64,000 nt of DNA from Candidatus Moraniibacteriota bacterium (GTDB lineage Bacteria > Patescibacteriota > Minisyncoccia > Moranbacterales > GWC2-37-73), in the NCBI GenBank assembly GCA_013336225.1, contig JAAXUC010000001.1, positions 99,949 through 163,948 on the forward strand, read 5' to 3'. Position 1 is the first letter of the stretch; every line of letters begins with the position of its first letter. A program made the position numbers and the translations under genes. The notes under the pieces were generated by a model, which did not search any database, was not told the DNA's origin, and worked only from the letters and a program-made list of their open reading frames with translations. Positions 18,238 through 63,579 of this stretch are shown piece after piece.

Positions 18238-18393
18238 AAAAGAAAATAACATAAATCGTAAGCACTCTGTGCTTGAAATTAAAATCTAAAAAAGTTGATT
18301 AGTTGCGTAGTTGCTTGGTTGATTAGGAAAAAATAAATTATCTTTTAAATCCTGTTTAACTAAAAAACTAATTAACTATTTAATTAAAAATAT

Positions 18394-35174: not shown

Positions 35175-35300
35175 AGAAATTTTGAATTATGAATTTCGAA
35201 TTTCGAATAAAATCTGAATGATTGAACGTTTAAATCATTAAAAATTGAGAAATTAGAAATTGGTTCAAAATTAAAAATTGGAAATTCAAAATTAAAGAAA
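35175..35300. repeat. AT-rich GAAATT/GAATTT low-complexity repeat block (family also at 3230-3353 and, in-frame, in recG 60420-60560)
   Basis: gaatttcgaatttcgaataaaatctgaat...aaattggaaattcaaaattaaag shares aaaatctgaat and cgaaatt units with the 3230-3353 block. Confidence 0.5.
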
Positions 35301-42560: not shown

Positions 42561-42617
42561 AAAATCCCGCGAAAGCGGGATTTTCTATTGCCCAAAAGCA
42601 TTTTATGTGGGTATAAT
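42561..42617 (+). promoter_or_regulatory. Terminator hairpin followed by the argS promoter (TTGCCC-17-TATAAT), with the -10 box only 6 nt from the ATG (leaderless-type)
   Basis: AAAATCCCGCGAAAGCGGGATTTTC hairpin; TTGCCC aaaagcattttatgtgg GTATAAT gaagat ATG. Confidence 0.45.
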
Positions 42618-42623
42618 GAAGAT

Positions 42624-45623: not shown

Positions 45624-45691
45624 GAATAAGATAGGAATATAAAAGCATTGAAGGAGTCATCACTCCTGAGCTGCGAAAAGAAACGACTGCT

Positions 45692-45747
45692 GTCGTCCTG
45701 AACTTGTTTCAGGATCTACGTAGATTCCGGATCAAGTCCGGAATGAC
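45692..45747. repeat. 56-bp near-perfect palindrome related to the argS element (left arm GTCGTCCTGAACTTGTTTCAGGATC, centre TACGTA, right arm GATTCCGGATCAAGTCCGGAATGAC)
   Basis: Left arm differs from the argS copy at 1 position. The right arm carries several substitutions that preserve the hairpin (CCGGA-tcaag-TCCGG). Confidence 0.6.
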
Positions 45748-45874
45748 ATGCAATCAGAGTAGAATTCGTCGGGTAAGCCCGTTATAGCCAAAAAACAAGG
45801 GTAGAATGTATAATGTAGAATGTATGACGTATGAAAATACATAATACATAATACTAAATACATGATACTGAAGC

Positions 45875-45949: not shown

Positions 45950-48862
45950 ATGAGTTTTAAAAAAGTTGATCCAAAACAATCACTGCCGAGAATGGAAGAA
46001 GAAGTGCTGAAATTTTGGAATGAGGAAAAGATATTTGAAAAATCTTTGGAAATCAGGAAAGGTGCTCAAGAATACACTTTTTATGATGGTCCGCCGTTTG
46101 CCACGGGAACTCCGCATTATGGCCATTTGGTCGGCTCAACCATGAAAGATGTTGTTCCGCGCTATTGGACGATGCGTGGTTTTCACGTGGAGCGCAAGTG
46201 GGGCTGGGATTGTCATGGACTTCCAATTGAAAATATTGTGGAAAAAGAATTGGGCAGCAAAGCGAAAAGTGAAATTGAAAAACTTGGAGTGGAAAAATTC
46301 AATGAGCTTTGTCGCTCAAAAGTTTTGGAATATGTGGATGTCTGGAAAGTGGTGATCAATCGCATGGGTCGCTGGGCTGACATGGACAATGCTTACAAAA
46401 CCATGGATTTGCCATATATGGAATCAGTGTGGTGGGTTTTTAAGGAGCTTTGGAGCAAGGGGCTTATATATGAAGGTTATCGTTCAATGCATATTTGTCC
46501 GCGCTGTGAAACCACCCTTTCTCAACAAGAGGTCAGTGAAGGTTATTTAGACATCAAGGATTTGTCAGTCATTGCAAAATTTGAATTACTGGAAGAGCCT
46601 GGCACTTTCGTGTTGGCTTGGACCACCACTCCATGGACGCTCATTGGAAATGTGGCTTTGGCTGTAAATCCCGCAATTGACTATGCCTATGTGGAAATGG
46701 TTAACATTCAGGATGATGGAAGTTTCAAGGAGGAAATTTTCGTGGTGGCTAAAGACAGAGTGGAGAGCTTATTTAAAGATAAGAATGTTGAGATTGTGCG
46801 CGAAATTTCAGGTGCGGAGTTGCTTGGAAAGAAGTATAAACCGGTTTTTGACTATTATGCTAAGACTGAGACTGAAAATTTTGCCAATGGATGGAAGATT
46901 GTGGGTGGAGATTTTGTGGGAGCTGAAGATGGCACGGGAATTGTGCACATTGCTCCAGCTTTTGGAGAAGACGATTTGAAACTTGGACAGGAACATGAGT
47001 TGCCCTTCGTGCAACATGTTGGAATGGATGGAGTGATTAAGAAAGAGGCAGGTGAATTTGCCGGTCTTAGTGTGAAGCCGATTGGCGACCACACCACTAC
47101 CGATGTGGAAATAATCAAATATTTGGCTAAAAATAAAACTCTTTTTGCTAAGGAGAAATATGAACACAGCTATCCTCATTGTTGGAGATGCGACACACCA
47201 CTCATCAACTACGCGACGAGTTCTTGGTTTGTGAAAGTCGCTCAAATAAAATCAAGCGCCATTGATTTAGCAAAAGAAATAAAGTGGTCTCCTGAAAACA
47301 TTAAGGAGGGACGTTTTGGAAAGTGGTTGGAAGATGCGCGCGATTGGTCAATTTCACGTCAACGTTTTTGGGCTTCAGTCATTCCGATCTGGCGTTGTGA
47401 GTGCGGGGAAACAAAAGTTTTCGGCTCAGTGGCTGAATTGGAATCTGTTAGCGGAGAAAAAATCACCGATCTGCATAAACATTTTGTTGATAGAATCGTG
47501 CTTAAGTGTGAGGCTTGCGGGCAAGCTATGCATCGCGTGCCTGATGTTTTGGACACCTGGTTTGATTCTGGTTCAATGCCATATGCGCAGCAGCATTATC
47601 CTTTTGAAAACAACGAAAAATTCGATCAGAATTTTCCAGCTGAATTTATTGCGGAGGGTGTGGATCAAACGCGCGCTTGGTTCTATTATCTGCATGTCAT
47701 TGCCACGGCCATCAAACAATCTCCGGCTTTTAAAAATGTGATTGTAAATGGTATCGTGCTAGCCGAGGACGGAAAGAAGATGGCTAAGAAGCTTAAGAAT
47801 TATCCAGATCCAATGCTGATGTTTGATAAATATGGCGCTGACACAATCAGGCTGTATTTGATGGGCTCACCAGTGGTAGCTGCGCAGAATTTGAATTTTT
47901 CTGAAAAAGATGTGGCAGAAATCATGCGAGGCATGATGCGTATGCTTTGGAATTCATATTCATTTTTCGTGCTGTATGCCAATATTGATAAGTGGGAGCA
48001 CCGGGATTTCTTCAAACATTCAACAGCCACAAATTTGCTGGATCGCTGGATTCTCTCGGAACTTAACACTTTGATAATCTCAGTGCATGACGGTATGGAG
48101 AATTATGAGATCCATCGCGCGGTCAGAGCCTTTCCAAAATTCATTGATGATCTTTCTAATTGGTATGTGCGGCGTTCTCGCAAGCGTTTTTGGAAAAGTG
48201 AAAATGATGTCGATAAAAATGAAGCGTATGCCACCTTGCATCATGTATTAGTGAATCTGTCTAAAATGATGGCTCCGTTTGCGCCGTTTATGGCGGAGGA
48301 AATTTTCAGGAATTTGACCGGCAAGGAGTCTGTGCATTTGGAGGAGCTGCCAACCGGCGATAATCATCACGTGGATGAGTTCTTGAATGATGAAATGAGA
48401 AGAGTGCGTGAAATTGTGACGGAAGGTTTACAGCTGCGCGCTCAAGCCAAAATTAAAGTTCGCCAGCCACTGGCCAGTGTGACCATTAAAGGCGTGTTTG
48501 CTGATGAGCTTGTGGAAATCATCAAGGAAGAACTAAATGTGAAAAGTGTGGCAATCGATGCTGAGCAAATTGAAAAAGTTTTGCTCGATACAGTTGTCAC
48601 GCAGGAGCTTGCTGAAGAGGGCGTGGCGCGCGAGATCATCAGACACATTCAAGAGATGCGCAAGGAAGCTGGCTACGAAGTTGACAATAGAATAAAAATA
48701 TGCTATAATAGACAATCAAGCGTCTTTGAAAAATTTGGCGAACTTATTGCCAAAGAAACCTTGGCTGACAGCCTTGTGAAAGGCTTGATGGATGATGCTG
48801 ATCTGACAAAAGAAATTGAGCTTGATGAAGGAAAAAATGCAATAGCCATCAAAAAGCAGTAA
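45950..48862 (+). CDS. ileS: Isoleucyl-tRNA synthetase (eukaryote-like type 2)
   Basis: PPFATGTPHYGHLV (HIGH region of the type-2 IleS form), KMAKKL (KMSKS), CP1 editing domain, 970 aa. Confidence 0.9.
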   Translation: MSFKKVDPKQSLPRMEEEVLKFWNEEKIFEKSLEIRKGAQEYTFYDGPPFATGTPHYGHLVGSTMKDVVPRYWTMRGFHVERKWGWDCHGLPIENIVEKELGSKAKSEIEKLGVEKFNELCRSKVLEYVDVWKVVINRMGRWADMDNAYKTMDLPYMESVWWVFKELWSKGLIYEGYRSMHICPRCETTLSQQEVSEGYLDIKDLSVIAKFELLEEPGTFVLAWTTTPWTLIGNVALAVNPAIDYAYVEMVNIQDDGSFKEEIFVVAKDRVESLFKDKNVEIVREISGAELLGKKYKPVFDYYAKTETENFANGWKIVGGDFVGAEDGTGIVHIAPAFGEDDLKLGQEHELPFVQHVGMDGVIKKEAGEFAGLSVKPIGDHTTTDVEIIKYLAKNKTLFAKEKYEHSYPHCWRCDTPLINYATSSWFVKVAQIKSSAIDLAKEIKWSPENIKEGRFGKWLEDARDWSISRQRFWASVIPIWRCECGETKVFGSVAELESVSGEKITDLHKHFVDRIVLKCEACGQAMHRVPDVLDTWFDSGSMPYAQQHYPFENNEKFDQNFPAEFIAEGVDQTRAWFYYLHVIATAIKQSPAFKNVIVNGIVLAEDGKKMAKKLKNYPDPMLMFDKYGADTIRLYLMGSPVVAAQNLNFSEKDVAEIMRGMMRMLWNSYSFFVLYANIDKWEHRDFFKHSTATNLLDRWILSELNTLIISVHDGMENYEIHRAVRAFPKFIDDLSNWYVRRSRKRFWKSENDVDKNEAYATLHHVLVNLSKMMAPFAPFMAEEIFRNLTGKESVHLEELPTGDNHHVDEFLNDEMRRVREIVTEGLQLRAQAKIKVRQPLASVTIKGVFADELVEIIKEELNVKSVAIDAEQIEKVLLDTVVTQELAEEGVAREIIRHIQEMRKEAGYEVDNRIKICYNRQSSVFEKFGELIAKETLADSLVKGLMDDADLTKEIELDEGKNAIAIKKQ

Positions 48863-49255: not shown

Positions 49256-49298
49256 AAAACTCAGCCGTTGCATTGCATATGCAGCGGCTTTTTATTAT

Positions 49299-49421
49299 CG
49301 AACGTAGTGAGCGAAATGATTTGTCAGCAGACAAAATCATTTCCGTCCGCCAGCTGGCGGAGAGTGATGATAACAAATTGGTTTAATACCTTGCGGCTTG
49401 CCCCGGGGTTAATACCTGTTT
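49299..49421 (+). repeat. About 120-bp repeat element, copy a (13-bp stem hairpin GAAATGATTTGTC-agcag-GACAAAATCATTTC and GGTTTAATACC units), immediately upstream of recO
   Basis: Shares GAGCGAAATGATTTGTCAGCAGACAAaaTCATTTCCG and GGTTTAATACCT with 50272-50400; a diverged reverse-oriented relative lies at 62575-62640. Confidence 0.6.
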
Positions 49422-49450
49422 ATTATTTACAGACCGCGTATAATGGATAT

Positions 49451-50170
49451 ATGGAATATAGATATACGGGAATCATCTTAAATAAGCGCAATGTGGGCGA
49501 AACTGACAGGATTTATACGATCTATACCCTTGAGGGTGGAAAAGTCAGGTCGCTGGCCAAAGGAGTGCGAAAATCACAGGCCAAACTGGCAGCCTCCTTG
49601 GAAAACATCACCTTGACTGACATCACAATCATCAAGAGCAGAGGACTGGGAAAAATCACTGGTTCAATTGTGGAAAACAATTTTTCCGAGCTCAAAAAGG
49701 ATTGCGATGCATTATTGGAAACATTTGCCGGATTGAGTATTTTTGAAAAATTGGTTGATTTTGAAAATCCTGATGCAAAAGTTTTTTCGTTGCTCAAGAA
49801 TTATCTGGAAGTGGTTGATTTTATTGCGCGCAGTGGAAATGTTGAAAAGCAGTTACTACTAAGACTTGGTTTTGTGGTGAAGCTTTTGGATCTGCTGGGT
49901 TATTCCATGGAAGTTGATCATTGTGTTGCTTGCGGAAAAAAGATTTCCGAAAAATTTCCTTGTTTCAGCTCGCAACATGGTGGAGCGCTTTGTGAAGATT
50001 GCGCCAAGGACAATGCCCAATGTTCATTGTCGGTGCGCGTCAATGTCATCAAGATGTTACGCTTGTTTTTGAAAAATAATCTGCAAGCTCTGATCAAGAT
50101 TAAGGCGACTCAGGAGGATTGTGACAGTGTACGCTTGGTGGTGGATGATTTTGTGAGATGGAACAGTTAA
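49451..50170 (+). CDS. recO: DNA repair protein RecO
   Basis: N-terminal OB fold (GIILNKRNVGETDRIYTIYTLEGGKV), C-terminal Zn-binding CVACGK...CEDC. A TATAAT box sits 6 nt upstream of the ATG. Confidence 0.75.
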   Translation: MEYRYTGIILNKRNVGETDRIYTIYTLEGGKVRSLAKGVRKSQAKLAASLENITLTDITIIKSRGLGKITGSIVENNFSELKKDCDALLETFAGLSIFEKLVDFENPDAKVFSLLKNYLEVVDFIARSGNVEKQLLLRLGFVVKLLDLLGYSMEVDHCVACGKKISEKFPCFSSQHGGALCEDCAKDNAQCSLSVRVNVIKMLRLFLKNNLQALIKIKATQEDCDSVRLVVDDFVRWNS

Positions 50171-50271
50171 AAAAACTCAAATCCAAAATCTAAATGTCAA
50201 ATAAATTACTTAAATCCAAATGTGTTAATCATCCCATTTGGATTTTTGTTATTAGGATTTTATTATCTAGC

Positions 50272-50400
50272 AAAACGAGCGAAATGATTTGTCAGCAGAC
50301 AATCATTTCCGAGTGAGTGACGATACCAAAAGGTTTAATACCTCGAGGCTTGCCTCGTGAGCCCAAAGGGTCCAGGGCTTGCCCTGGGGTATTAATACCC
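50272..50400 (+). repeat. About 120-bp repeat element, copy b (direct repeat of 49299-49421), upstream of the 50515 gene; includes CTTG-loop hairpins CGAGG-cttg-CCTCG and CCAGGG-cttg-CCCTGG
   Basis: Sequence identity with copy a over the hairpin core; see copy a. Confidence 0.6.
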
Positions 50401-50514
50401 TTTTATTTGACATTTGGTATTGAGATTTTTGATTTTGCTTGTTTTTTGTTTTAACAATACTGCATTTTGTGGTACAATATTATTGAACATAAAAATAATA
50501 TAGAAATAAAATAT

Positions 50515-52428
50515 ATGCCGCTCAATAATCTTAATCGGGAATTGTATAGTCAGCGTGAAAATGAAATTTCAAGTCGAAAGCATGAGCAGAGTGCTTATGA
50601 TCCGATGATTAATAATGCAAATGGATCTGTCAGTCCTTTTGATGAGCAGCAGCGCTGGAATCAGCCTCAAAAAGGTCTTTCTCCTGAGCAAAAAAAGAAA
50701 TTATGGATTGGCATTTCAATTTTCTTGTTTGTTGCACTTGTGATTGGAGGAATATTTTTCTATCAATGGTGGGCTAAAAATGCTTTTCATCAGGATCGTG
50801 TCAGCATTTCTTTTGAAGGTCCACTTTCAGCTGATAGCACGCAGCCAACAAAATATATCATTCACTACACTAATAACAATCGTGTGACTCTTAATAATGC
50901 TGAAATTCAACTCAGTTATCCCGAAAATTTTCAACCAACTGAGAATTTGAATTTGAAATATTTAAGTCCCTCTGCGAGCAAGATGTTTATTGGAGATGTG
51001 AAGCCCATGGCAAGCGGGCAAGTTGAATTGAATGGAGTCTTTTATGCTCCTAAAGATTATCCGGTTTATTTACGCGGCGAAATTCATTTCATTCCTTCTA
51101 ATGGAACGGAGGAACTTTTTATGGATAAGCAAATTGCGATCAATATAACGGCGGCACCAGTCGTGCTAAGCGTGGTCGCACCACAACAAGCAGTCAGTGG
51201 AGATGGATTGGAATATGTGGTCGATTACAAAAATCTTGATCAAAAACGCATCAGTGACGTGCAAATTCGTATTGATTTTCCCCAGGGATTTGAAATGAGT
51301 TCTGCCACACCTAGGCCATCAGAAAAAGAGTCTTATTGGTATATCGGAAACCTGGAGCCAAATCAAGGCGGAAAAATAAGCATTACTGGGAAAATTAAAG
51401 GCAGTAGCAATGAAGGCAAAAATATCATTGTTTCTCTTGGTCATATTGGTGGAGATAATCAGTTTGTGGTTTTCAATAAACAAGAATTGGCGACGCGCAT
51501 TGTTTCTCCTGTCTTGACCGTGGCACAAAAATTGGATGGCAAAGACACTGGAGTGGCCAGTGCTGGCGAGCTTTTGAAATATACGGTGACATATCAAAAC
51601 ACGGGAACAATCGGGCTTCGCGATGCCATTGTCACAGCAGAAATCAAGGGTAATGTTTTGGATTTTTCCAAAATAAGCGTGCAAAACGGCTCATATGACA
51701 GCGCAAAAAATAGCATCATCTGGAAAGCTTCGGATGTTCCAGCATTGGCCAATATAAATCCTGGTGCTGGCGGCAGCGTGCAATTCAGCATTCCAGTGAA
51801 AGCGGTTATTCCAGTTGAAAGCAAGCTTGATAAGAATTTCGCCATTTCTTCAATTGCAAAGATTGACAGCCCTGACATTCCCACGCCCCTTGATTCCAAT
51901 AAGATAATTGGCAGTAATAAGCTTGAAGTGAGGCTTGCTTCAAAAGTTCTCTTTGAAACGAAGGGATATTATACGGAAGAAAAAATTAAGAATTCTGGAC
52001 CGATTCCTTTGGAATCAGGCAAAGAGACGACATTTACACTGCATTGGCAAATCACTAATGTCTCCAATGATCTCACTGAAGCTTTGGTTGTTTCAGCATT
52101 GCCGTCTGGAGTGCGTTTCACTAATAAAATTTATCCATCCAATGAGAAGATTTCATATAATGAAAGAACAAACCAGCTTATTTGGAATGCTGGTGATGTC
52201 CCTGCAGGCGCTGGTGTGCTTGTGCCGCCGCGTGAAGTTATTTTTCAGGTAGGTGTCACTCCGCAAACAAATCAAGTTGGAAACATGCTGGATTTGCTTA
52301 ATAAATCCATTCTCACTGCCAAGGATGATTTTGTGGGACAAGGTGTAACACTGGATGGTGGAGCTAAAAACACAACTCTATATGAAGATCCTGCTATTGG
52401 ATATACTAATGGCAAAGTGGCTAAGTAA
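50515..52428 (+). CDS. Hypothetical membrane-anchored protein with large extracytoplasmic beta-rich repeat domains
   Basis: Long ORF (start at 50467 or 50515), one TM helix, repeated NxGTxxLRDAxVTAEI-like segments; family not recognised with confidence. Confidence 0.4.
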   Translation: MPLNNLNRELYSQRENEISSRKHEQSAYDPMINNANGSVSPFDEQQRWNQPQKGLSPEQKKKLWIGISIFLFVALVIGGIFFYQWWAKNAFHQDRVSISFEGPLSADSTQPTKYIIHYTNNNRVTLNNAEIQLSYPENFQPTENLNLKYLSPSASKMFIGDVKPMASGQVELNGVFYAPKDYPVYLRGEIHFIPSNGTEELFMDKQIAINITAAPVVLSVVAPQQAVSGDGLEYVVDYKNLDQKRISDVQIRIDFPQGFEMSSATPRPSEKESYWYIGNLEPNQGGKISITGKIKGSSNEGKNIIVSLGHIGGDNQFVVFNKQELATRIVSPVLTVAQKLDGKDTGVASAGELLKYTVTYQNTGTIGLRDAIVTAEIKGNVLDFSKISVQNGSYDSAKNSIIWKASDVPALANINPGAGGSVQFSIPVKAVIPVESKLDKNFAISSIAKIDSPDIPTPLDSNKIIGSNKLEVRLASKVLFETKGYYTEEKIKNSGPIPLESGKETTFTLHWQITNVSNDLTEALVVSALPSGVRFTNKIYPSNEKISYNERTNQLIWNAGDVPAGAGVLVPPREVIFQVGVTPQTNQVGNMLDLLNKSILTAKDDFVGQGVTLDGGAKNTTLYEDPAIGYTNGKVAK

Positions 52429-52444
52429 AAAAACAGAACAGCTG

Positions 52445-52510
52445 TCGGTCATTAGTCATCCGTCATCAAAAAATTCATCAAGCCTTTGAGGCGCGATGAC
52501 AGATGACGGA
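52445..52510 (+). terminator. Long GTCAT-repeat hairpin after the 50515 gene
   Basis: GTCGGTCATTAGTCATCCGTCATC ... GATGACAGATGACGGATGAC inverted repeat. The GTCAT-repeat family also occurs at 14265-14320 and in-frame in uvrC at 31558-31590. Confidence 0.45.
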
Positions 52511-52596
52511 TGACTTTTAATTATACGAATTAATATATTTATTCATAACAAGTATGGAATCATACGCAATATATGGTTTTGAAAAAGGTAAGTAAT

Positions 52597-52715
52597 GTTT
52601 TTGATTTGCCTATTTCCTCTTGAGAGCACGCTTCGCAGCCGAAATCTATGGCTGCTCACTCGGACCTCGCTGTCGCTCGCTACGGCTTCAAGAGAAAATA
52701 GGCAAATCAAAAACC
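52597..52715 (+). repeat. About 115-nt palindromic element, copy 2 (outer stem sequence differs from copy 1 but remains complementary)
   Basis: GTTTTTGATTTGCCTATTTCCTCTTGA...core...TCAAGAGAAAATAGGCAAATCAAAAAC. Confidence 0.7.
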
Positions 52716-52764
52716 ACATATTGCGCTTGATCCTAAGTATGCTGGACTTAATTGAAATTTGGTT

Positions 52765-52770
52765 TATAAT
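52765..52770 (+). promoter_or_regulatory. TATAAT -10 box 8 nt upstream of the tgt ATG (leaderless-type promoter)
   Basis: GGTTTATAATgggacgatATG. Confidence 0.4.
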
Positions 52771-52778
52771 GGGACGAT

Positions 52779-53897
52779 ATGTTTACATTGATTTCACAGC
52801 AACAAAAGAAGCGCATTGGATTGCTTAAAACTAAAAACGGTGTAATTAATACGCCGTTTTTCATGCCGATTGCAACTAAGGGCGCGGTAAAAAATGTTTC
52901 TCCTGAAGATTTGCTGGCTTTGGGCGCGGAAATTGTGCTGGGAAACACTTATCATCTTTGGCTCAGGCCAGGAGATGATCTTATTGCGCGGGCAGGTGGA
53001 CTCCATAAATTCATGCATTGGAGTGGACCAATTTTGACTGATTCTGGTGGTTATCAAGTTTTTTCACTTGGCGCGCGAGCCAAAGAAAAATATGGGACCA
53101 ATGGCGTCAAACTTAGTGAGCAAGGAGTTGATTTTGCTGATCCCTTAAATGGCAGCCGACATTTCATGTCGCCGGAAAAATCAATTGACATTCAACTTAA
53201 TCTTGGTTCTGACATGATCATGGTGCTGGATGAATGTCCGCCATATCCATGCTCACACAGTGCTGCCAAAAAATCACTGGAACTCACCACGCGTTGGGCT
53301 GCTCGCTGCCTGACTTATTTTCAAGAAAAAACCAAGCATCTTTCCAGGGAAAACCGTCCCTTGCTTTTCGCGATTGTGCAGGGAAGTGTCTATGAAGATT
53401 TGCGAAAAGAATCAGCCAAGCAATTGACTGCCATGGATTTCGATGGTTTTGCAATTGGCGGTGTGGCAGTGGGCGAACCTAGAAAACATCTCTATGAAAT
53501 TTTGCAGTGGGTGGTGCCCTTTTTGCCTGCTGACAAACCGCGCTATTTGATGGGACTTGGAAAACCTGAAGAATTAGTGGCAGCTGTTGAGGCTGGAATG
53601 GATATGTTTGATTGTGTCATTCCCACGAGAGAAGGTAGGCACGGAAGACTTTTTGTTTGGAAAGAGGGGAACAATTTGAGTGGAGATTTTTATGAAACAA
53701 TAAATATCAATAATGAACAATTCAGGGAAGACTTCACACCGATAGACTCAAATTGTGATTGCTATGCTTGCAAAAACTTCACCAAAGCTTATCTCAATCA
53801 TTTGCTCAGAACAAATGAGCCATTCTTTCTGAAGCTTGCTTCAGTGCATAATTTGAATTTCTATCTGAAATTGATGAAATTGCTCGGCGAAAAATGA
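52779..53897 (+). CDS. tgt: Queuine tRNA-ribosyltransferase
   Basis: GVINTPFFMPIATKGAVK, LGNTYHL, DSGGYQ, and Zn site CDCYAC...H. Confidence 0.9.
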   Translation: MFTLISQQQKKRIGLLKTKNGVINTPFFMPIATKGAVKNVSPEDLLALGAEIVLGNTYHLWLRPGDDLIARAGGLHKFMHWSGPILTDSGGYQVFSLGARAKEKYGTNGVKLSEQGVDFADPLNGSRHFMSPEKSIDIQLNLGSDMIMVLDECPPYPCSHSAAKKSLELTTRWAARCLTYFQEKTKHLSRENRPLLFAIVQGSVYEDLRKESAKQLTAMDFDGFAIGGVAVGEPRKHLYEILQWVVPFLPADKPRYLMGLGKPEELVAAVEAGMDMFDCVIPTREGRHGRLFVWKEGNNLSGDFYETININNEQFREDFTPIDSNCDCYACKNFTKAYLNHLLRTNEPFFLKLASVHNLNFYLKLMKLLGEK

Positions 53898-54000
53898 AAG
53901 AAAATCAAATAGCAATACGTATCATATCAATAGGTGCGTAAAATTATAAAAAGCGGAAATTTTTTAGGCTCAGGCCTATTGCATATTTCTAACAAATGAC

Positions 54001-54321
54001 ATGGCAAAAAAAGAAAAAAAAGTCATAAAACAATCAACTGAAGCTGGTAAGCAGTTTTTGGAAGTGAGCAAGTTTTTCAAGATTGTGGCTGATGAAAATC
54101 GCTTGAAGATCTTGGTTTTATTGGAAGGCAGCAGCATGAATGTCACCGACATTCATAGTAAATTGAAGCTTCCGCAAAATCTGACTTCACATCACATTTC
54201 TAAGTTGAAAACTTTGGATCTTCTGCTGGAAAAACGCGAAGGGACTTTCAGGAATTACAGCGTTAATACTAAGAAGCTCAAGGAATACAATAAAATGTGT
54301 AAAGAGCTGTTTAAGATCTAG
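54001..54321 (+). CDS. ArsR/SmtB-family transcriptional regulator
   Basis: ENRLKILVLL...MNVTDIHSKLKLPQNLTSHHISKLKTLDLL wHTH. Confidence 0.7.
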   Translation: MAKKEKKVIKQSTEAGKQFLEVSKFFKIVADENRLKILVLLEGSSMNVTDIHSKLKLPQNLTSHHISKLKTLDLLLEKREGTFRNYSVNTKKLKEYNKMCKELFKI

Positions 54322-54347
54322 TATTTTTAGTTGCAATTGCATTTGAA

Positions 54348-54379
54348 AAAGCCCAGCGCAAGCTGCGGCTTTTTTTGAT
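54348..54379 (+). terminator. Terminator after the ArsR-like gene
   Basis: AAAAAGCCCAGCGCAAGCTGCGGCTTTTTTTG. Confidence 0.6.
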
Positions 54380-54409
54380 TATGTATAATACTGGATCATG
54401 TGCAATATT

Positions 54410-54527
54410 TTTTTTGTTTCACCTGTTTTTTCTTGAAGCCGTAGCGAACGACAGTGAGGTCCGAGTGAGCAGCCATGAATTTCGGCTGCGAAACGTGCTC
54501 TCAAGAGAAAACAGGTGAAACAAAAAA
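54410..54527 (-). repeat. About 115-nt palindromic element, copy 3 (reverse orientation)
   Basis: Reverse complement matches the copy 1/2 core (GAGAGCACGTTTCGCAGCCGAAATTCATGGCTGCTCACTCGGACCTCACTGTCGTTCGCTACGGCTTCAAGA). Confidence 0.7.
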
Positions 54528-54777
54528 ATCCTTCTTTTGCTCCTGGAATATTATATTGCGAGTGACCCACAATACCTGGTTCTTCTGATTTACTCATCTC
54601 CTTTTTTGGCACATTTTTGACTGAAAATCATAGTCAAAAAACTTACTCGCTCTCGCTGCGTAGGTCCTAAAAAGAAAATAAGCAAATCAGAAGGCATCAA
54701 TCTTGCTTTAAGTGTATTTGCAAAAAAAGCTTATTTTAGGTATTATTGATTCATAAGTCTTATGGATATTACATCTT

Positions 54778-55902
54778 ATGAATTCTAAGAAACGCATTTT
54801 TTCAGGAGTACAGCCAAGCGGCAATTTGCATATTGGCAATTATTTGGGAGCGATTGCAAACTGGGTTAAATTGCAGGATGAATTTGATTCCATTTTTTGT
54901 GTGGTGGATATGCATGCCATCACCGTGCAGCAAGATCCTGAAGAATTGAGAAAAAAAACCATTGAAATTGCCAAGATATATTTGGCAGCGGGAATTGATC
55001 CAAAAAAATCATCCATCTTTATTCAATCGCAAGTGAGTGAGCATGCAGAACTTTGTTGGATTTTAAATACAATTGTGAAAAATGGTGAGTTGGCAAAAAT
55101 GACACAGTTCAAAGTTAAAACTGGAATTTTCGATGAATTATCAGAGAGTGAGTCTTCTAAGGAGGTAAAGGAGAAAGCAAATGAAATTGGCGGTGTTGAA
55201 TCGGAAAAAAATGCAAAATATGCCGCGTTTCAATTAGCAAAAAAGATATTCGAAATATACAAAAAAGAATTTAATGATGCTGGTACTGGGCTTTTTGACT
55301 ATCCAGTTTTGATGGCGGCTGATATTTTGCTGTATGGAACTGATGTGGTGCCAGTGGGTGAAGATCAGAAACAACATGTGGAATTGGCGCGTGATTTAGC
55401 CAAAAGATTTAATCAAAAATTTGGTGAGACATTTGTTGTGCCAGAGTCGCGCATCAAAAAAGAAGGGATGCGTGTGATGGGCTTGGATAATCCTGAAAAG
55501 AAGATGAGCAAATCCGCTGAGTCTGTTTATAATCGCATTGAGCTGTTGGATAGCGCTGAAATAATCCGCAAGAAAATCAAAAAGGCTGTGACTGATTCTG
55601 GCTCAGAAATTGTGTATAGCGATGAAAAGCCGGCCTTGAAAAATCTGATCAATATCTATGCAGCATTTTCAGAAAAAACCCCTAAGGAAATTGAAAGCAT
55701 ATATGCCGGCAAAGGTTATGGAGATTTTAAGACTGATTTGGCTGAGATTATCGTGGGATTTTTGACTCCCTTTCAAGAAAGATATGCTGCAATTTCAGAC
55801 CAGGAGGTGTTGGAGATTCTTCGCGCTGGAAAAGAAAAAGTTCAAACACTTGCAAAGGCGAAGCTTGATGAGGTTAAAACAAAAATTGGTTTTATCGTCT
55901 AG
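54778..55902 (+). CDS. trpS: Tryptophanyl-tRNA synthetase (with about 45-aa Lys/Glu-rich insertion)
   Basis: PSGNLHIGNYLG (HIGH) and KMSKS; the insertion lies between FKVKTG and GLFDYPVLMAADIL. Confidence 0.9.
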   Translation: MNSKKRIFSGVQPSGNLHIGNYLGAIANWVKLQDEFDSIFCVVDMHAITVQQDPEELRKKTIEIAKIYLAAGIDPKKSSIFIQSQVSEHAELCWILNTIVKNGELAKMTQFKVKTGIFDELSESESSKEVKEKANEIGGVESEKNAKYAAFQLAKKIFEIYKKEFNDAGTGLFDYPVLMAADILLYGTDVVPVGEDQKQHVELARDLAKRFNQKFGETFVVPESRIKKEGMRVMGLDNPEKKMSKSAESVYNRIELLDSAEIIRKKIKKAVTDSGSEIVYSDEKPALKNLINIYAAFSEKTPKEIESIYAGKGYGDFKTDLAEIIVGFLTPFQERYAAISDQEVLEILRAGKEKVQTLAKAKLDEVKTKIGFIV

Positions 55903-56097
55903 CCATTAAATATGTGCTGAATTGCACTATTTGTATTAAGTCGTAAAAAGTTATATAATATATAGTATAATAGTCCTGAGTGATACTCTTGTCATGCAGT
56001 TGTTTGTTTGAAAATAAATAAAATAAAATTTCGAATACTTGTTTTAATTTCAGTTGGTTTAGACGCTCATAAAAATAAAAATAGACACCATAGCAAT

Positions 56098-56496
56098 ATG
56101 ACCACTAACGAAAATAAAAAAAAGATTATACTTGCCGTTGATGATGACGCTGATTTGTTGGAACTAAATGTCATCGCTCTTTCCGCAAAAGGTTTTGAGG
56201 TGCTGGAAGCGGGGAATGGTAAGGAAGCGATGGAATGGTTGGACAGAAAAGGGGATGAAATTGAATTGATATTGCTAGACATTGTCATGCCAATCATGGA
56301 TGGTTTTGAGGTGCTCGAAAAAATACAGAAAAGTGAAAAATATCGAAAAATTCCAGTGATCGTGGCTTCAAATCTGGAAAGCGATGCTGACAGGCAGGCA
56401 GCCTTTGCCTTGGGAGCTAAAGATTTTTTTGAAAAAGTCAAAATGAATCCAAGTAGTGTCGCTGAAAAGATTAAGGAAATAATTGAAAAAAAATAA
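56098..56496 (+). CDS. Orphan response-regulator receiver domain (CheY-like)
   Basis: ILAVDDD...LILLDIVMPIMDGFEVL...VIVASN receiver motifs. Start taken at ATG 56098 (MTTNENKKKIIL); the tracked ORF starts upstream at 56008. Confidence 0.6.
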   Translation: MTTNENKKKIILAVDDDADLLELNVIALSAKGFEVLEAGNGKEAMEWLDRKGDEIELILLDIVMPIMDGFEVLEKIQKSEKYRKIPVIVASNLESDADRQAAFALGAKDFFEKVKMNPSSVAEKIKEIIEKK

Positions 56497-56511
56497 TCAT
56501 TATCTAGCGAA

Positions 56512-57600
56512 ATGAAGAAATTACTTAAAAAATTGTCATGTTGTCTTCCGCCAGTGTTGCTGGATTATTTTGAATGGCTTTTTGCTGATGCGGCCGAAAA
56601 TCAATTGAGAATCACAAAGGCAAACAAAAACAAATTTCGTTCATACACCCAGCTGAAAAGACATCAAAAGAAACTCAAATTTTATGTGGGCGGTTTTTTC
56701 TTGGTGCTGATTTCCTTATTTATGGGCTTGATTATTGGGCCAATCATATCTCCCGCCCCAATTCCTCCTGAGTTGTACATTCCAAATGGAAGAGGTGATA
56801 TTTTGCTGGGAAATATTTCCAAGAATCAAGTGACGATGATTTTCAAGACCTTGGATAGCGCCAATAATAATGAACCACTTGCCACTAAAGCTGTGGTGGA
56901 AGTTTACAATGATGAGAATTACACGAAATTGGTACGCAGAACAACTGAGGATGATTATGCTATTACGCATATTATCCCGGTAGATTCTTTGCAAGAAGGA
57001 AATCTTTATTATATTCGCATTGTCGCCAGACATGATGCAATAACTGGTAGTCAGACCAAGGTTGTTTCTTCTTGGGGCGACGGACGAGATCCGATACGCG
57101 TTTACACAACAGGTGAGATTGCTCAAAGCTGCATCCCAGTTAAGCAAGCTGAGTCTCCGCCAATTGCGAGTGACGAGATTGATGCGGTTAAAATTTCAGA
57201 TGTCATGAATGAATCTCAAAATCAAAATGCAATTGTCGCTAATAATAGTTTGCAAATTTCAAATGTGATGAATGAAAGTTATTTGCAACCAAAAAACAAA
57301 ATTCAGACAATAATTTCTTGGAACACAAACAAGCCAGCCACGACAGTGTTGCTATATGAGGAGACTGCTTCAAGAGAAAAAATTGAAATTATCATCAATA
57401 ATCAATTGCAGGATAAGCATGCGGCAATTTTAACCACCTTGAAAGCTGGAACTGCATATTTGTTTAGTGTGAAATCAGTTGATAAGGACGGCAAGACTGT
57501 GATTTCAGAGCAATATTCATTGCGCACTCCAAAGCCTCAGTCAACGATTAGTGAAAAAATCAAGGAAAGTTTCAAGTCAATCTTCAAGAAACAAAAATAA
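56512..57600 (+). CDS. Hypothetical membrane-anchored protein
   Basis: 362-aa ORF, N-terminal TM helix, internal duplicated SDVMNES / SNVMNES segment. Confidence 0.4.
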   Translation: MKKLLKKLSCCLPPVLLDYFEWLFADAAENQLRITKANKNKFRSYTQLKRHQKKLKFYVGGFFLVLISLFMGLIIGPIISPAPIPPELYIPNGRGDILLGNISKNQVTMIFKTLDSANNNEPLATKAVVEVYNDENYTKLVRRTTEDDYAITHIIPVDSLQEGNLYYIRIVARHDAITGSQTKVVSSWGDGRDPIRVYTTGEIAQSCIPVKQAESPPIASDEIDAVKISDVMNESQNQNAIVANNSLQISNVMNESYLQPKNKIQTIISWNTNKPATTVLLYEETASREKIEIIINNQLQDKHAAILTTLKAGTAYLFSVKSVDKDGKTVISEQYSLRTPKPQSTISEKIKESFKSIFKKQK

Positions 57601-57709
57601 TCATTACAACAAGTCTTTCAACAAAAACTCCAGAATGATTCTGGAGTTTTTGTTTTAAGTATTTCTATTGCCATGTGCAATATATAATTCTTTATGTTAA
57701 GTTTTTTTG

Positions 57710-59092
57710 CTACCCACGGATGATGGCCAGCAGCTCATCTCGTTTTTCCTCCATCAATTTATTATTTTTTGCTTCTACATTTAGTCGTATGAGTGGTTCA
57801 GTGTTTGAGCCTCGCACATTGAATCTCCAATTGTTCAAGTCATTAGTAGTGTCGATAAAATCAAGAGAGACGCCATCTTGCAGATCGCTTTTGGATGACT
57901 GTGCGATGTATTTGAATCTTATTTTCTCAATGACTGCTGAAACGTCAGCAACTTCATTATTGATTTCTCCACTGACATGATAAGTGTCCCAAAACATTTC
58001 CTGAATGATTTGAGAAAAAGGTTTTTCCTGCTTGGAAAGGAATTCCAAGATCATCACAAGTGGTATCATGCCACAATCACAGAAAAAATAATCACGGAAA
58101 TAATAATGCGCACTCATTTCACCTCCAAAAACAGCATTCTCTTGGCGCATACGCTCCTTGATGAAAGCGTGTCCTGCTTTGGTTGGCACATTGGTTCCTC
58201 CATTTTGACTGGCGATATCTTCAATTGCCCAGGTTAGGCGAGTGTCATGCAGAATTTTTTCGCCGTTTTTTCTGTCCAGAAAAATCTTGGCCAGCAGCGC
58301 TGTGATGAAATAACCCTCAATGAATTCCCCCTTTTCGGTGAAGAAGAAGCAGCGATCAGCATCGGCATCCCAAGCAACTCCAAAATCAGCGCCTGTTTCC
58401 ACCACTAGTTTGGAAATTTCTTCCCGATTGGTCGGGATGAGCGGATCTGGTCTGCCCTTGGGAAAATTTCCATCCGGTTCGTAATTTATTTTTACTATAT
58501 CAAGCTTGGTTCCTTCGAGAATTTTTGTCAGGGCGCGTCCACCGACTCCGAAATTGGGATTGGCCACGATTTTGAATTTTTTGAATTTGGAAAAGTCCGC
58601 AAAGGATTGAATTTTTTCGGCGTAATCGTTGAGGATATCTTTTTTCTCAACCAAGCTTTCATTGATTTCGCCATCCAGCACAACCGGATCGACGTCCAAG
58701 GCGAACGCCATATCGCGGATGTCGTAGATTCCGGTGTCGCCGGAAATCGGCTTGGACTGTTCACGCACGATCTTCATGCCATTGTATTCTCCTGGATTGT
58801 GTGAGGCAGTCAAGGTTATTCCTCCAGCATAACCATAATTGGCCACAGAGAAATATAACATGTCAGTTGAAATTTCTCCCACATCAATGACTCTGATTCC
58901 CTGATCGGTGATGGCCTTGATGGCTGCTTTTTTCAGGGCAGGTGAGGAAAGGCGAACGTCGCAGCCGACAACCAATTCTGTCGGTTTGAGAAATTGGCAC
59001 AAGGAAGTGGCAATCTTGTAGACATCAAGCTCATTGATCTCGGTGGGATAAATTCCGCGGATGTCATAAGCTTTGAAAATATTTTTATTCAT
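57710..59092 (-). CDS. Phosphomannomutase/phosphoglucomutase (alpha-D-phosphohexomutase)
   Basis: Active-site TASHNPGEYNGMKI and metal-binding DADADR. Confidence 0.8.
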   Translation of the reverse strand: MNKNIFKAYDIRGIYPTEINELDVYKIATSLCQFLKPTELVVGCDVRLSSPALKKAAIKAITDQGIRVIDVGEISTDMLYFSVANYGYAGGITLTASHNPGEYNGMKIVREQSKPISGDTGIYDIRDMAFALDVDPVVLDGEINESLVEKKDILNDYAEKIQSFADFSKFKKFKIVANPNFGVGGRALTKILEGTKLDIVKINYEPDGNFPKGRPDPLIPTNREEISKLVVETGADFGVAWDADADRCFFFTEKGEFIEGYFITALLAKIFLDRKNGEKILHDTRLTWAIEDIASQNGGTNVPTKAGHAFIKERMRQENAVFGGEMSAHYYFRDYFFCDCGMIPLVMILEFLSKQEKPFSQIIQEMFWDTYHVSGEINNEVADVSAVIEKIRFKYIAQSSKSDLQDGVSLDFIDTTNDLNNWRFNVRGSNTEPLIRLNVEAKNNKLMEEKRDELLAIIRG

Positions 59093-59270
59093 ATAGTCTT
59101 CTTTTAATTCTAAAGTCTAATTCTTAAGGTCTAAAACAAGTCTAAATTCTAATTTATAATTTTACACTTTAGATTTTTAAAGTTAGTCTTTAGATTTATG
59201 GTTTTTATTGGCAAATAAGATACTTGTGTATTATAACCTTTTTTGTTTTTTGCCTCAAGCGCAATGTGCG

Positions 59271-59388
59271 ATTTTTGTTTCACCTGCTTTCTCTTGAGAG
59301 CACGCTTCACAGCTGAAATCTATGGCTGTTCGCTCGGACCTCGCTGTCGCTCGCTACGGCTTCAAGAAAAAACAGGCGAAACAAAAAT
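59271..59388 (+). repeat. About 115-nt palindromic element, copy 4 (carries a compensatory double change in the internal hairpin: GCAGCC/GGCTGC to ACAGCT/GGCTGT)
   Basis: ATTTTTGTTTCACCTGCTTTCTCTTGAGAGCACGCTTCACAGCTGAAATCTATGGCTGTTCGCTCGGACC...CGCTACGGCTTCAAGAAAAAACAGGCGAAACAAAAATG. Confidence 0.7.
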
Positions 59389-59399
59389 GCTTCTTTCTT

Positions 59400-61604
59400 T
59401 TATTCAAGATGGATGTTAGCTTGAAATTTTCCAAGTTCTTTTTGCAGGAGAGGAAAGTTGCCAAGGTCGGGACTATCAAGCAAGGTTTGCTCGGCGTAGT
59501 CATGGGCAATTTCAATCAATTTTGCATTTGCCAGGTGCTCCATGGCGATGTCTGGCAACCCTGATTGCCTGGTGCCCAGGAATTCTCCTGGTCCTCGTAG
59601 TGCAAGATCTTCTTCAGCAATCTTGAAACCGTTGGAAGTTTTTTCCATCGCCCCCAGGCGCGATTTAGCTTTGGTGGTTTTGCTGCCAGTGAACAAGAAG
59701 CAATAGGATTGCTTGTCGGAGCGACCGACGCGCCCACGAAATTGATGTAATTGCGAAAGACCGAAACGTTCAGCATCTTCAATGATGATAATGGTGGCAT
59801 TGGGAATGTCGATGCCAACTTCCACCACTGAGGTTGCAACCAAAATGTCATATTTTTTATCTTTGAAATCCTGCATCACTTTTTCCTTTTCGGTCGATTT
59901 CAAACGACCATGCAAAAGTCCAAGACTGAGTTTTGGGAAAATCTCACGGGACAAATGTTCATGTTCTTGGGTTGCAGCTTTGAGTTCAGTGAGTTTTTCT
60001 GATTCTTCTACTAGCGGAAAAATGATGAAAGCCTGATGACCACTGGCGATTTCTTTTTCAACAAAATCATAAATTTCTTTGCGTTTGCTGTGAGTGATGA
60101 TTTCAGTGACGATGGACTTTCTGTTTTTTGGCATTTCATCCAGTACAGACAAATCAAGATTTCCAAAATATGCCAAGGTCAAAGTGCGGGGAATGGGAGT
60201 GGCTGTCATGGTCAAGAAATGAGGAATTTTACCTGGCAGTCCGTCATTGATTTTGGAAATTTGCTGCTGCAAATATGCGCGTTGAGCGACGCCAAAACGA
60301 TGTTGTTCATCCACAATCACCAACGCCAAATTTTTGAATTTAACAGCCTCTTGAATGATGGCATGGGTGCCGATAATTATATCAATATTGCCATTGCGCA
60401 GTTCAGCTATTAATTGTTCTTTAGACAACTTATTATTTTTTATGGATTGTAATTTTGAATTTTTAATTTCTAATTTCGATTGAATTTTTAATGTTTTAAT
60501 TTTTAAACATTCATCATTCTGATTTGACTCAAAATTCAAAATTGGAAATTCAAAATTATTAATAAGCTTGTATGCATTTGTCAGCAGTCCAATGTTTATG
60601 TCATATGAGGCGAATATCTTGCAGATACTCTCATAATGCTGGCGAGCCAAAACTTCTGTGGGAGCCATGATCGACACTTGAAATCCAGCTTTGATGGCAT
60701 TCAGGCTTGCGATGGCAGCCACGATTGTTTTGCCGCTGCCCACATCTCCATTTAAAAGGCGATTCATTGGCAGTGGCTTTTCCAGATCTTTCAAGATTTG
60801 AAAAGCAGCTTTGCGCTGAGCATCGGTCAGGGTGAAGGGGAGATCGGAAACAAATTTTTTGATGAGTTCTTCATTAAAGTGCATGGAGACAGCATTTTGT
60901 TTGTCCCAAGAGATTTTCACTTTTTGAGTTGCGAGTTGCACTAAAAATATTTGCTGGAAAGCAAAACGTTTTTGAGCCAGTTCAAATTCTTGCAGTGTTT
61001 TGGGAAAATGCAAGGATTTCACTGCTTCAGACAGCTTGGGCAGATGCAGGCCTTTGAGAATGTTTTCAGGCAGTGGATCAATCAGTGCGTCGGCATATTT
61101 GATCAGGTTCTGCATTTGCCAGCGAATCCATTTGGAAGTGAGACCTTCGGTTTCGGGATAGATTGGCACCAGGCGCCCAGTGTTGGTGGGAGTGCGCGAA
61201 GAAAGTTCCCAAGCTGGACTTCCAAAAAAAAGACCATTTCGATCCTCGGAAACTTTGCCAGAGAGACGCACGCCCTTGCTGACAGTCAGTGAGTCGCTAA
61301 TATATGGCTGATTGAACCACACGGCGCGCACAGTGCCAGTTTCATCGCTGACAAAACATTCCGTGATCATCATTTTCTTTTTCCAAGTGCGCACCATTTT
61401 GCTTTGAGAAATTTCGCCCATCACGGTTGCTGCTTCTCCTGCTTGTAAATCAGCAATTTCAATCCTTTCGGAATAATCTTCATAGCGAAAAGGGAAGTGC
61501 AGCAAAAAATCCTCCACCGTTTCCAGGTTGAGTTTTTTCAAAATTGGCGCATATCTAAGGCCGATGCGCGGAATTTTTTCCAGCTTTATTTTCAAATAAT
61601 CCAT
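59400..61604 (-). CDS. recG: ATP-dependent DNA helicase RecG (with about 45-aa insertion encoded by an AT-rich GAAATT-type repeat)
   Basis: Wedge/OB N-terminus, helicase motifs GDVGSGKT and DEQHRFGV, TRG motif region. Insertion INNFEFPILNFESNQ...LEIKNSKLQSIKNN at DNA 60420-60560 matches the intergenic repeat family at 3230-3353 and 35175-35300. Confidence 0.9.
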   Translation of the reverse strand: MDYLKIKLEKIPRIGLRYAPILKKLNLETVEDFLLHFPFRYEDYSERIEIADLQAGEAATVMGEISQSKMVRTWKKKMMITECFVSDETGTVRAVWFNQPYISDSLTVSKGVRLSGKVSEDRNGLFFGSPAWELSSRTPTNTGRLVPIYPETEGLTSKWIRWQMQNLIKYADALIDPLPENILKGLHLPKLSEAVKSLHFPKTLQEFELAQKRFAFQQIFLVQLATQKVKISWDKQNAVSMHFNEELIKKFVSDLPFTLTDAQRKAAFQILKDLEKPLPMNRLLNGDVGSGKTIVAAIASLNAIKAGFQVSIMAPTEVLARQHYESICKIFASYDINIGLLTNAYKLINNFEFPILNFESNQNDECLKIKTLKIQSKLEIKNSKLQSIKNNKLSKEQLIAELRNGNIDIIIGTHAIIQEAVKFKNLALVIVDEQHRFGVAQRAYLQQQISKINDGLPGKIPHFLTMTATPIPRTLTLAYFGNLDLSVLDEMPKNRKSIVTEIITHSKRKEIYDFVEKEIASGHQAFIIFPLVEESEKLTELKAATQEHEHLSREIFPKLSLGLLHGRLKSTEKEKVMQDFKDKKYDILVATSVVEVGIDIPNATIIIIEDAERFGLSQLHQFRGRVGRSDKQSYCFLFTGSKTTKAKSRLGAMEKTSNGFKIAEEDLALRGPGEFLGTRQSGLPDIAMEHLANAKLIEIAHDYAEQTLLDSPDLGNFPLLQKELGKFQANIHLE

Positions 61605-62761: not shown

Positions 62762-62982
62762 GTCGTCGTTAACACTCTTCCTTGAAACCTTGCGGTTTCA
62801 ATACTTCCACTCCGGGGAAACTTCCGTTTTCCCGACCCCTTTCCCATTTGAACTTTGCAAGTTCAAGCATCTCCATCTCCATTCAAATCACTCAAAGGTC
62901 AGTATACAATATACAGTAAAAAAAGTAAATACTTAGTGATGAATGCTTGTTGAATTTTGAATATTGAATTTTGGATGTTGTT

Positions 62983-63579
62983 TTAAATATGCAAAACCCT
63001 TTCAATGGCATCAATAAGTCCTGGATCCTGTTTAATTTCAGGGATGTCATGAATCAGGAATTCTCGTATTTTGACTGGATCTTCATCGCGAAGGGGAATG
63101 TGAACAAATGGCAACATGGATGCTTTGGTGTGCAGGCTGATGGTTTTGGTGTGCGGCGGATCATAGAAAATCCAAAAAGAATTGATGTTTTCAAAAAGAT
63201 ACATTTCTTTGTCAGCAATGATGCCCTTAGTTGTGATGGAGAAAGTGATCACGCGAGGATCTTTTTGTAGATAGATATATCCTACAATGCCAAGCAAAAT
63301 GAAGGTGATGGCCATGATGGGACCATTGGTATAGAGAGCATAGATCACCATTAGGACGATGAAAATGGCAAAAATTAAATACCAACGGGCACTTTTTTCA
63401 TAGACTTCAAATTCCGGCGCTTTCCATTGATGCAAAATTTTGCCGGTCTGCGAACTTTCTTTGTGCGCAGCATCATGCTCATGGCTGGCGATTGCTTCTT
63501 GGTGTTGCTCGCTTGCAACTGGCCTTGGTGGCGCAGCATGCTGCTGAGTGGCAAGCGCTTTTTTTAGATCAAATGACAT
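62983..63579 (-). CDS. Hypothetical membrane protein (2 TM helices, His-rich N-terminus)
   Basis: 198-aa ORF; no family recognised. Confidence 0.4.
   Translation of the reverse strand: MSFDLKKALATQQHAAPPRPVASEQHQEAIASHEHDAAHKESSQTGKILHQWKAPEFEVYEKSARWYLIFAIFIVLMVIYALYTNGPIMAITFILLGIVGYIYLQKDPRVITFSITTKGIIADKEMYLFENINSFWIFYDPPHTKTISLHTKASMLPFVHIPLRDEDPVKIREFLIHDIPEIKQDPGLIDAIERVLHI

Follow-up and report, generated by a model that had tools for sequence, protein, structure and literature searches.

An in-frame copy of a dispersed palindromic repeat in a helicase-domain loop of RecG in Candidatus Moranbacteria

Background

Rickettsia palindromic elements (RPE) are short dispersed palindromes of about 100-150 bp that occur between genes and also in-frame in unrelated housekeeping genes (PMC10969869); the peptides they encode are compatible with the fold of the host protein, and their hosts are host-dependent bacteria with small genomes (PMC10969869, summarising Ogata et al. 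2000 Science). Here we describe a 64-kb stretch of DNA (hereinafter, the window) from a metagenome-assembled genome (MAG) of Candidatus Moranbacteria (Candidate Phyla Radiation, CPR/Patescibacteria), in which the recG gene carries, in-frame in a loop of the helicase domain, a copy of a dispersed palindromic repeat referred to below as family A. Family A resembles RPE in its size, its palindromy and the presence of both intergenic and in-frame intragenic copies, and it behaves like them. It is nevertheless not a member of the Rickettsia RPE families, from which it is set apart by the host phylum (Candidatus Moranbacteria/CPR), and sequence relatedness to them is unlikely. Further differences are that its arms are tandem heptamer arrays, that one loop is contested by several families that are not related to each other, and that its content turns over almost independently of phylogeny.

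Repetitive extragenic palindromic (REP) sequences and their doublets, REPINs, consist of inverted units with a spacer, are about 100 nt long and abundant, lie mostly in short intergenic spacers, and are mobilised by REP-associated tyrosine transposases (RAYT) (Bertels & Rainey 2011, PMC3116915). The inverted doublet, the intergenic habit and the persistence across related genomes are common to REPINs and family A. However, REPINs are extragenic by definition and linked to RAYT, whereas family A has a copy inside recG and arms in other genes; its AT-rich arms of tandem heptamers have little potential to form hairpins, and 40 scanned open reading frames (ORFs) of the window include no RAYT/Y1 domain.

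[quoted passage not shown] Family A is likewise small, non-coding and multi-copy (three copies in 64 kb), with terminal inverted repeats and an in-frame fusion; unlike for MITEs, neither a target-site duplication nor a parent insertion sequence was identified for it in the window, and its in-frame copies look more frequent, and seem to recur at one loop more often, than is usually reported for MITEs. The short tandemly repeated repetitive (STRR) sequences of cyanobacteria are reportedly made up of 7-nt units in tandem, the arrays being dispersed and a single genome having several heptamer flavours. Dispersed heptamer arrays are found here too, but in other organisms, with other heptamers, as inverted pairs around a centre and inside genes; we treat this likeness as a lead only. 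Our literature search found nothing linking CPR bacteria with such elements; most papers in subscription journals were outside the search, and an earlier description is possible.

Results

The insert in RecG

The features of the recG locus are as follows.

59400-61604, minus strand: recG, 734 aa (from the ORF list), helicase and wedge domains all intact
60426-60572, minus strand: extra RecG segment YKLINNFEFPILNFESNQNDECLKIKTLKIQSKLEIKNSKLQSIKNNKL, codons 345-393, extra relative to the solved RecG structures
60446-60558: family A element, in-frame copy of about 113 bases (nhmmer E 6e-23 on the plus strand, 3e-22 on the minus strand)
60450-60493: arm 1 of the inverted repeat, 44 nt, AATTTTN heptamer array plus inner box
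60515-60558: arm 2 of the inverted repeat, 44 nt, inner box plus NAAAATT heptamer array

The product of the host gene matches RecG_wedge, DEAD, Helicase_C and RecG_dom3_C in Pfam, shows 100% identity to a Candidatus Moranbacteria protein bearing the name RecG, and aligns with the Thermotoga maritima RecG (1GM5) at E 8e-155 in HMMER, with GDVGSGKT, PTEVLARQH, DEQHRFG and TATPIPRT in register. The hallmarks of a RecG helicase are thus present: a wedge domain, motifs I, Ia, II (DEQH) and III of a superfamily 2 (SF2) core, and the C-terminal domain.

The same alignment splits at a single loop: query residue 344 corresponds to residue 454 of the T. maritima protein and query residue 394 to residue 459, so that 49 residues stand against 4. 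The insert adds about 40-45 residues between motif Ia and the IIGTHA strand, and the spacer from QH (motif Ia) to GTHA is 88 aa here versus a mode of 43 in 72 RecG loci of diverse bacteria (taken among the matches listed, mostly distant RecGs with at most 54% identity, and used only for loop length). In an AlphaFold2 model built on 34 orthologs, residues 351-391 lack secondary structure and have a pLDDT (predicted local distance difference test) of 25-30, compared with up to about 88 in the flanks; a confidently modelled strand (346-348) and helix (395-403) border the segment. This predicted disorder fits a surface loop that tolerates the insert. The insert residues are rich in lysine, asparagine and serine, and the catalytic motifs are untouched.

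Family membership and anatomy

An earlier note on this DNA placed an AT-rich repeat in-frame in recG at 60420-60560 and assigned it to the same family as intergenic blocks at 3230-3353 and 35175-35300. Both claims were borne out. A three-copy nhmmer profile recovers exactly three copies in 64 kb (E from 4e-23 to 3e-21; the next match has E 0.37), the bounds of the recG copy fall inside the interval proposed for it, and the other two copies overlap the two blocks. The 30-nt arm pattern has 5 matches in the window versus 0.00 expected from shuffles; the repeat is real and well beyond chance. The copies outside recG are the following.

3222-3337: family A intergenic copy, an inverted repeat, between an amidase gene and a short ORF (likely ATG at 3354), nhmmer E 4e-23
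35176-35295: family A intergenic copy between convergent genes, uvrA (ends at 35172) and a minus-strand ORF (ends at 35292), nhmmer E 3e-22
62944-63008: weak, incomplete copy that consists of one heptamer arm and is mostly intergenic, nhmmer E 0.37, alone not significant; Tandem Repeats Finder (TRF) reports period 7 at 62950-62973

The note spoke of a low-complexity repeat in a helicase loop. The in-frame insertion stands, but the repeat is not merely of low complexity: it is a structured palindrome of about 105-120 nt, the span across which 20 family A copies from the window, related genomes and metagenomes can be aligned. Individual copies are 101-121 nt long, with arms 75-82% complementary. 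The left arm is composed of 3-5 AATTTNN heptamers (GAATTTY) and is followed by an inner box, roughly AATCAAATCNGAATG, and a variable centre; after the centre come the mirrored box (…CATT…ATTSAATC) and the right arm, likewise of 3-5 heptamers, NNAAATT (RAAATTC). The inner boxes are semi-conserved. In the recG copy, the arms of 44 nt each are 75% complementary, i.e., the palindrome is imperfect, and the tandem-repeat search suggested in the note shows both of them to be period-7 arrays (TRF rows 60450-60506, 7.4 copies, and 60529-60557, 4.1 copies). Over the 20 copies, 83% of the arm cells pair in register, against 51-61% when the arms are slid by ±1 and 20-36% when they are slid by ±2 or ±3.

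Dispersal

Full copies are also present in the spacer between recG and the phosphoglucomutase gene of the related loci L084, L085, L086 and L087 (at 8233-8343 in L087), and between two other genes in L083 (17490-17604); here and below, L numbers denote loci and P numbers denote proteins. A metagenome scan with the arm pattern yielded at least 80 loci, at least 32 of them with full or partial elements (nhmmer E <1e-4), and members of the family are 76-88% alike across unrelated contigs. Viral contigs contain single heptamer arrays only, without the full element. A profile of the insert peptide, run against a collection of 5.8 billion proteins, returned only short spurious ORFs in intergenic copies and missed the known RecG positives; this search is uninformative on the number of other proteins that carry the element. 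Family A is common in Candidatus Moranbacteria genomes, where it normally occupies short intergenic spacers.

One intergenic copy affects gene annotation. The ORF 3294-3629 has its TTG start within the repeat, and MKIESKFEIHNSKLKSEFKN precedes the internal ATG at 3354, which is the likely true start. The false N-terminal extension reported in the note is therefore correct; its "tsaB-like" label remained unconfirmed, as Pfam has no family for the 91-aa product of 3354-3629.

Reading frames

Only one of the six frames of the recG copy is open, and it is that of recG. The same is true of all four recG copies compared (the window, L081, L082 and L083), each with exactly one open frame. Among 16 intergenic copies, two have any open frame and 14 have stops in all frames; the copy at 3222-3337 has stops in all six. 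The difference (4/4 versus 2/16) corresponds to a hypergeometric p of about 0.003 by our own calculation. The in-frame observation carries an ascertainment bias, since it relates to full-length called proteins only.

The heptamers GAAATTC and GAATTTC are stop-free in every phase and encode the cyclic peptides EIRNSKF and EFRISNF whatever the phase. The arms being stop-free in all phases, the centre alone must be stop-free for the whole copy to be open. An intein, an intron and a translational bypass were set aside, the insert being always in-frame and stop-free.

Conservation at the nucleotide level

The four recG copies are more alike in the element than in the surrounding gene. Nucleotide identity is 0.80-0.92 in the element versus 0.62-0.74 in the flanking recG codons, and third-position identity is 0.73-0.86 versus 0.41-0.48. 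For identical amino acids of the same types, codon choice agrees in 83-91% of cases within the element, against 44-56% elsewhere in recG (Fisher p from 4e-5 to 2.5e-3). The centre AATGATGAATGTTTAAAAATTAAAACATTAAAAATTCAATC is common to genomes with RecG proteins just 68-84% identical.

Turnover of the loop among RecG orthologs

An alignment of RecG orthologs, proposed in the earlier note, was made with 120 Moranbacteria proteins of 56-100% identity. The loop is by far the most variable site of RecG: it is longer by 6 or more residues in at least 57 proteins, and other insertion sites are sporadic. Insert-free orthologs exist (P0035, P0046, P0053, P0103, P0114 and P0117); their loops are minimal, about 13 residues within the slice of the alignment. 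Full-length family A fills the loop in P0002/3, P0047, P0076 and others. At the DNA level, the element lies at the same codon and in the same orientation and frame in L081, L082 and L083, which come from NCBI, ENA and Logan assemblies, and P0002, bearing the same insert, is present on 14 contigs. A homologous insertion lacking the DNA repeat, which the note regarded as evidence against its reading, was not found: the orthologs with the homologous peptide that were checked at the DNA level (the same three loci) all have the palindromic DNA.

Reduced forms occur among relatives. The locus L208 is 87% identical to L081 in nucleotides, minus exactly 81 internal nucleotides, and a short palindrome GAATTTCGAAATTC remains. 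One arm is left in L084 and L085, and none in L087. Among the closest relatives, the loop is empty in P0006/P0009, deleted in P0004 and holds half of the insert in P0005/P0007. The forms of L208, L084 and L085 represent the decay typical of palindromes.

Besides family A, the loop holds at least three other types of palindrome-derived peptides. The first is CHSGLDPES…/CHPE…, encoded in L086 by TGTCATTCCGGG…CACGGGAATGACA; the second has GTCATCR/GTAATCA heptamer arms and the peptide VISNQSS…DDRSLMTDD (L209); the third has GTAACCA-type arms and the peptide SNQQPVTSN…YQLPVTNY (L210). A RecG from the Parcubacteria group (L002) has a CHPERS-type insert in the same loop. The other loop palindromes (types B, C and D) gave self matches only in a blastn comparison with their own ±10 kb.

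With the loop coded in five states, 47 Fitch changes are required on 119 tips versus 57.9 ± 2.7 (minimum 48) after shuffling, a count that depends on a neighbour-joining tree and a heuristic classification of peptides. The phylogenetic signal is thus weak, and the loop is considered a hot spot with a fast turnover. The likely cause of the hot spot is that insertions are frequent and selection keeps those at tolerated sites; alternatively, existing palindromes may be targeted.

An insertion of a different kind was noticed in P0070, P0072, P0078 and P0098: 115-140 aa with a match to PF13366, in a second RecG loop (query positions about 454-459).

Discussion

We believe that one copy of a dispersed non-coding palindromic repeat of family A was, in all probability, fixed in-frame in the loop of recG and appears to be read through there as a disordered peptide. 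The following course of events is presumed. A non-autonomous palindromic repeat would spread through the genome, and a copy would arrive in recG by a transposition-like insertion mediated by some enzyme; it lies in the loop that connects the strand following motif Ia (…LLTNA) with the helix that leads up to the IIGTHA strand. Genic copies would survive only in permissive loops and only if stop-free. The recG copy may persist owing to the permissive loop, the heptamers without stops in any phase and the centre that is stop-free in the recG frame. The ribosome would read through it to produce about 40-45 disordered residues, RecG with the insert presumably retaining its activity, and the copies would later decay by internal deletion.

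Several observations weigh against this explanation. Pfam scans of 40 ORFs of the window reveal no transposase or Y1/RAYT domain. Among the loci examined, no pair of an empty and a filled site is close enough to define the insertion junction; the copies mostly end in TAATTT…AAATTA, which would fit a TA duplication that is inseparable from the element ends in AT-rich DNA. As for the palindrome, shuffling of partners among the sequences gives 82.0% pairing versus 83.3% observed, RNAalifold finds no consensus structure across the family A copies, and the folding of single-stranded DNA is weak (z from -0.65 to -3.0). The high synonymous conservation would not be expected of a neutral, old and vertically inherited passenger. 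Finally, it is the continuity of the frame that suggests translation of the insert.

The nearly equal pairing after shuffling, the lack of an alifold consensus and the weak folding disfavour a hairpin maintained by compensatory changes. The symmetry looks rather like that of two inverted consensus copies, such as terminal inverted repeats or paired binding sites. The covariation score is barely above that of shuffles (13 of 500 shuffles reach it), and the tool itself cautions against over-reading such values. The role of a structured RNA was rejected as unsupported: the element has no match in Rfam, where only two tRNAs of the window exceed the gathering thresholds, alifold gives no structure, and the pairing is explained by column consensus. 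The role of a promoter or terminator was rejected as well, since the corresponding signals are at or below chance in consensus scans. A TGnTAnAAT-like motif is visible by eye 5' of several intergenic copies in related loci; the scan does not support it for the window copy, and we give it little weight.

The synonymous conservation fits three explanations: the copies may be younger than the genes, if a conserved master sequence was inserted independently or exchanged; they may be homogenised against other family members, which are 76-88% alike; or the DNA itself may be constrained. The last of these leads to the best surviving alternative, namely, a functional nucleic-acid element within the gene (such as a site bound by a protein, a regulatory hairpin inside the gene or a site recognised by a domesticated transposase) that is kept in recG by selection, with the peptide as a by-product. 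The conservation of nucleotides, third positions and codon choice above the rest of recG and the centre common to rather distant genomes speak for it; young or homogenised copies would, however, give equal conservation. The states of the loop show a patchy distribution, and the closest relatives (P0006/P0009, P0004 and P0005/P0007) have lost the insert, which disfavours a strongly selected function. Taking into account also the promoter and terminator signals not above chance, the lack of an Rfam match and of a consensus structure, and the marginal covariation, we consider such an element unlikely.

It may also be proposed that the loop simply grew in place by replication slippage of heptamer microsatellites, and that its likeness to the intergenic blocks reflects shared AT-biased slippage. 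Single-arm heptamer arrays do turn up in many settings (viral contigs and GC-richer genes among them), uvrA and uvrC of the window contain further period-7 arrays in-frame, and neither a target-site duplication nor a transposase was found. Slippage, however, offers no route to an inverted second arm, and full copies from unlinked loci and from different genomes share, at E of about 1e-22, both the inverted arms and the non-repetitive inner boxes described above. The same loop is also filled by unrelated palindromes without AT-rich heptamers, such as that of L086. Several repeat types are present in one genome and the type in the recG loop differs by lineage; repeated independent insertion is therefore favoured over evolution in place, and slippage appears to us even less plausible than a functional element. 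An artefact of assembly or binning, with a chimeric join through the repeat, may be dismissed as extremely improbable: repeats can misassemble in metagenomes and the window comes from a MAG, but the frame runs on without a break between flanks of conserved RecG sequence, and the same insert occupies the same codon in independent NCBI, ENA and Logan assemblies, P0002 alone being found on 14 contigs.

As regards the insertion of a dispersed repeat in-frame in the helicase-domain loop, the earlier note was essentially right, and the insert in recG is one instance of a broader pattern in the lineage: several types of palindromes are repeatedly found in the same loops of essential proteins, a pattern that is, as far as we found, undescribed. 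A bolder proposal, which we regard as doubtful, is that Moranbacteria carry a large and diverse superfamily of palindromes, many of them heptamer-armed, that enter, time after time and by preference, the same few loops of essential proteins (for instance, RecG and ArgRS), with a turnover nearly uncoupled from phylogeny and a synonymous conservation that reflects an active process at the DNA level. If true, the process might be insertion aimed at palindromes already in place, gene conversion between copies or a function for the host; the phenomenon would then be RPE-like at a far larger scale and with site targeting, beyond passive tolerance.

Palindromic selfish DNA that lies in-frame in housekeeping genes has mostly been regarded as peculiar to Rickettsia, and CPR bacteria have small genomes and a symbiotic lifestyle. 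The same behaviour of unrelated elements in CPR suggests that this may be a recurrent outcome of reduced, host-dependent genomes. In practice, such inserts inflate and distort alignments of CPR proteins, give rise to small ORFs and to false extensions of N-termini, and lead to erroneous "hypothetical proteins". The hypervariable loops of RecG and ArgRS could serve as strain markers, and they are natural experiments on protein loops that tolerate disordered insertions of about 40 residues. Stop-free arms with the same cyclic 7-residue peptide in every phase provide a simple rule for the survival of repeats inside genes.

Repeats in other genes and other features of the window

Family A arms were found in-frame in further metagenome proteins: an M24 peptidase (methionine-aminopeptidase-type), Lgt, LigA (NAD-dependent DNA ligase), a class-III aminotransferase, a Mur ligase, two GT4/GT1 glycosyltransferases and MurG. 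These in-frame arms encode NSKFEIRNSKL, KFEIRNSKFEIK or FIISNFEFRISN. Other palindromes of the window are as follows.

42834-42918: palindrome of 85 nt, in-frame in argS (42588-44288, plus strand), with 26-nt perfectly complementary arms, each a small hairpin
52443-52512: palindrome with GTCATCR/GATGAC arms, intergenic
14267-14323: palindrome with GTCATCR/GATGAC arms, intergenic
31558-31584: arm of the GTCATCR type, in-frame in uvrC, peptide SLVIGHQSFG

The argS element, which encodes CHPELVSGSRKVTNGEQSTEILKQVQDDM and has a related intergenic copy at 45691-45748, resembles REP doublets in its perfect inverted arms and small hairpins. Three sites of ArgRS vary among 120 orthologs in the repeat-derived peptides that fill them, family A arms included. 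The GTCATCR-armed type also fills the RecG loop in other lineages (L209), and copies of palindromes like those of types B and C are present elsewhere in the window.

Tandem arrays of other kinds were also noticed. AAAAGCT period-7 arrays lie in-frame at 27696-27716 (a uvrA paralog) and 31165-31200 (uvrC), the UvrC peptide being, for example, EKLEAKSYKLKA. An inverted pair of heptamer arrays (GTAGAAT… / …AATACAT) occupies 45801-45868, upstream of ileS (45950-48862). The period-8 arrays AGTTGATT and TTAACTAA, at 18293-18326 and 18356-18387, are directly upstream of recA (18394-19440). Finally, a repeat of about 120 nt has three intergenic copies with few mismatches, at 52597-52714, 54409-54528 and 59271-59388, the last one immediately downstream of recG; it has no match in Rfam and consists of inverted arms of 27-28 nt around a conserved GC-rich core of 64 nt.

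Genes of DNA repair and recombination are unusually dense at 13530-35172 and 49268-61604. The window includes the following genes of this group.

LexA-like S24 peptidase, ftsK, recA, ssb, uvrB, uvrC, recO and recG
26948-29848: uvrA, first paralog
32380-35172: uvrA, second paralog

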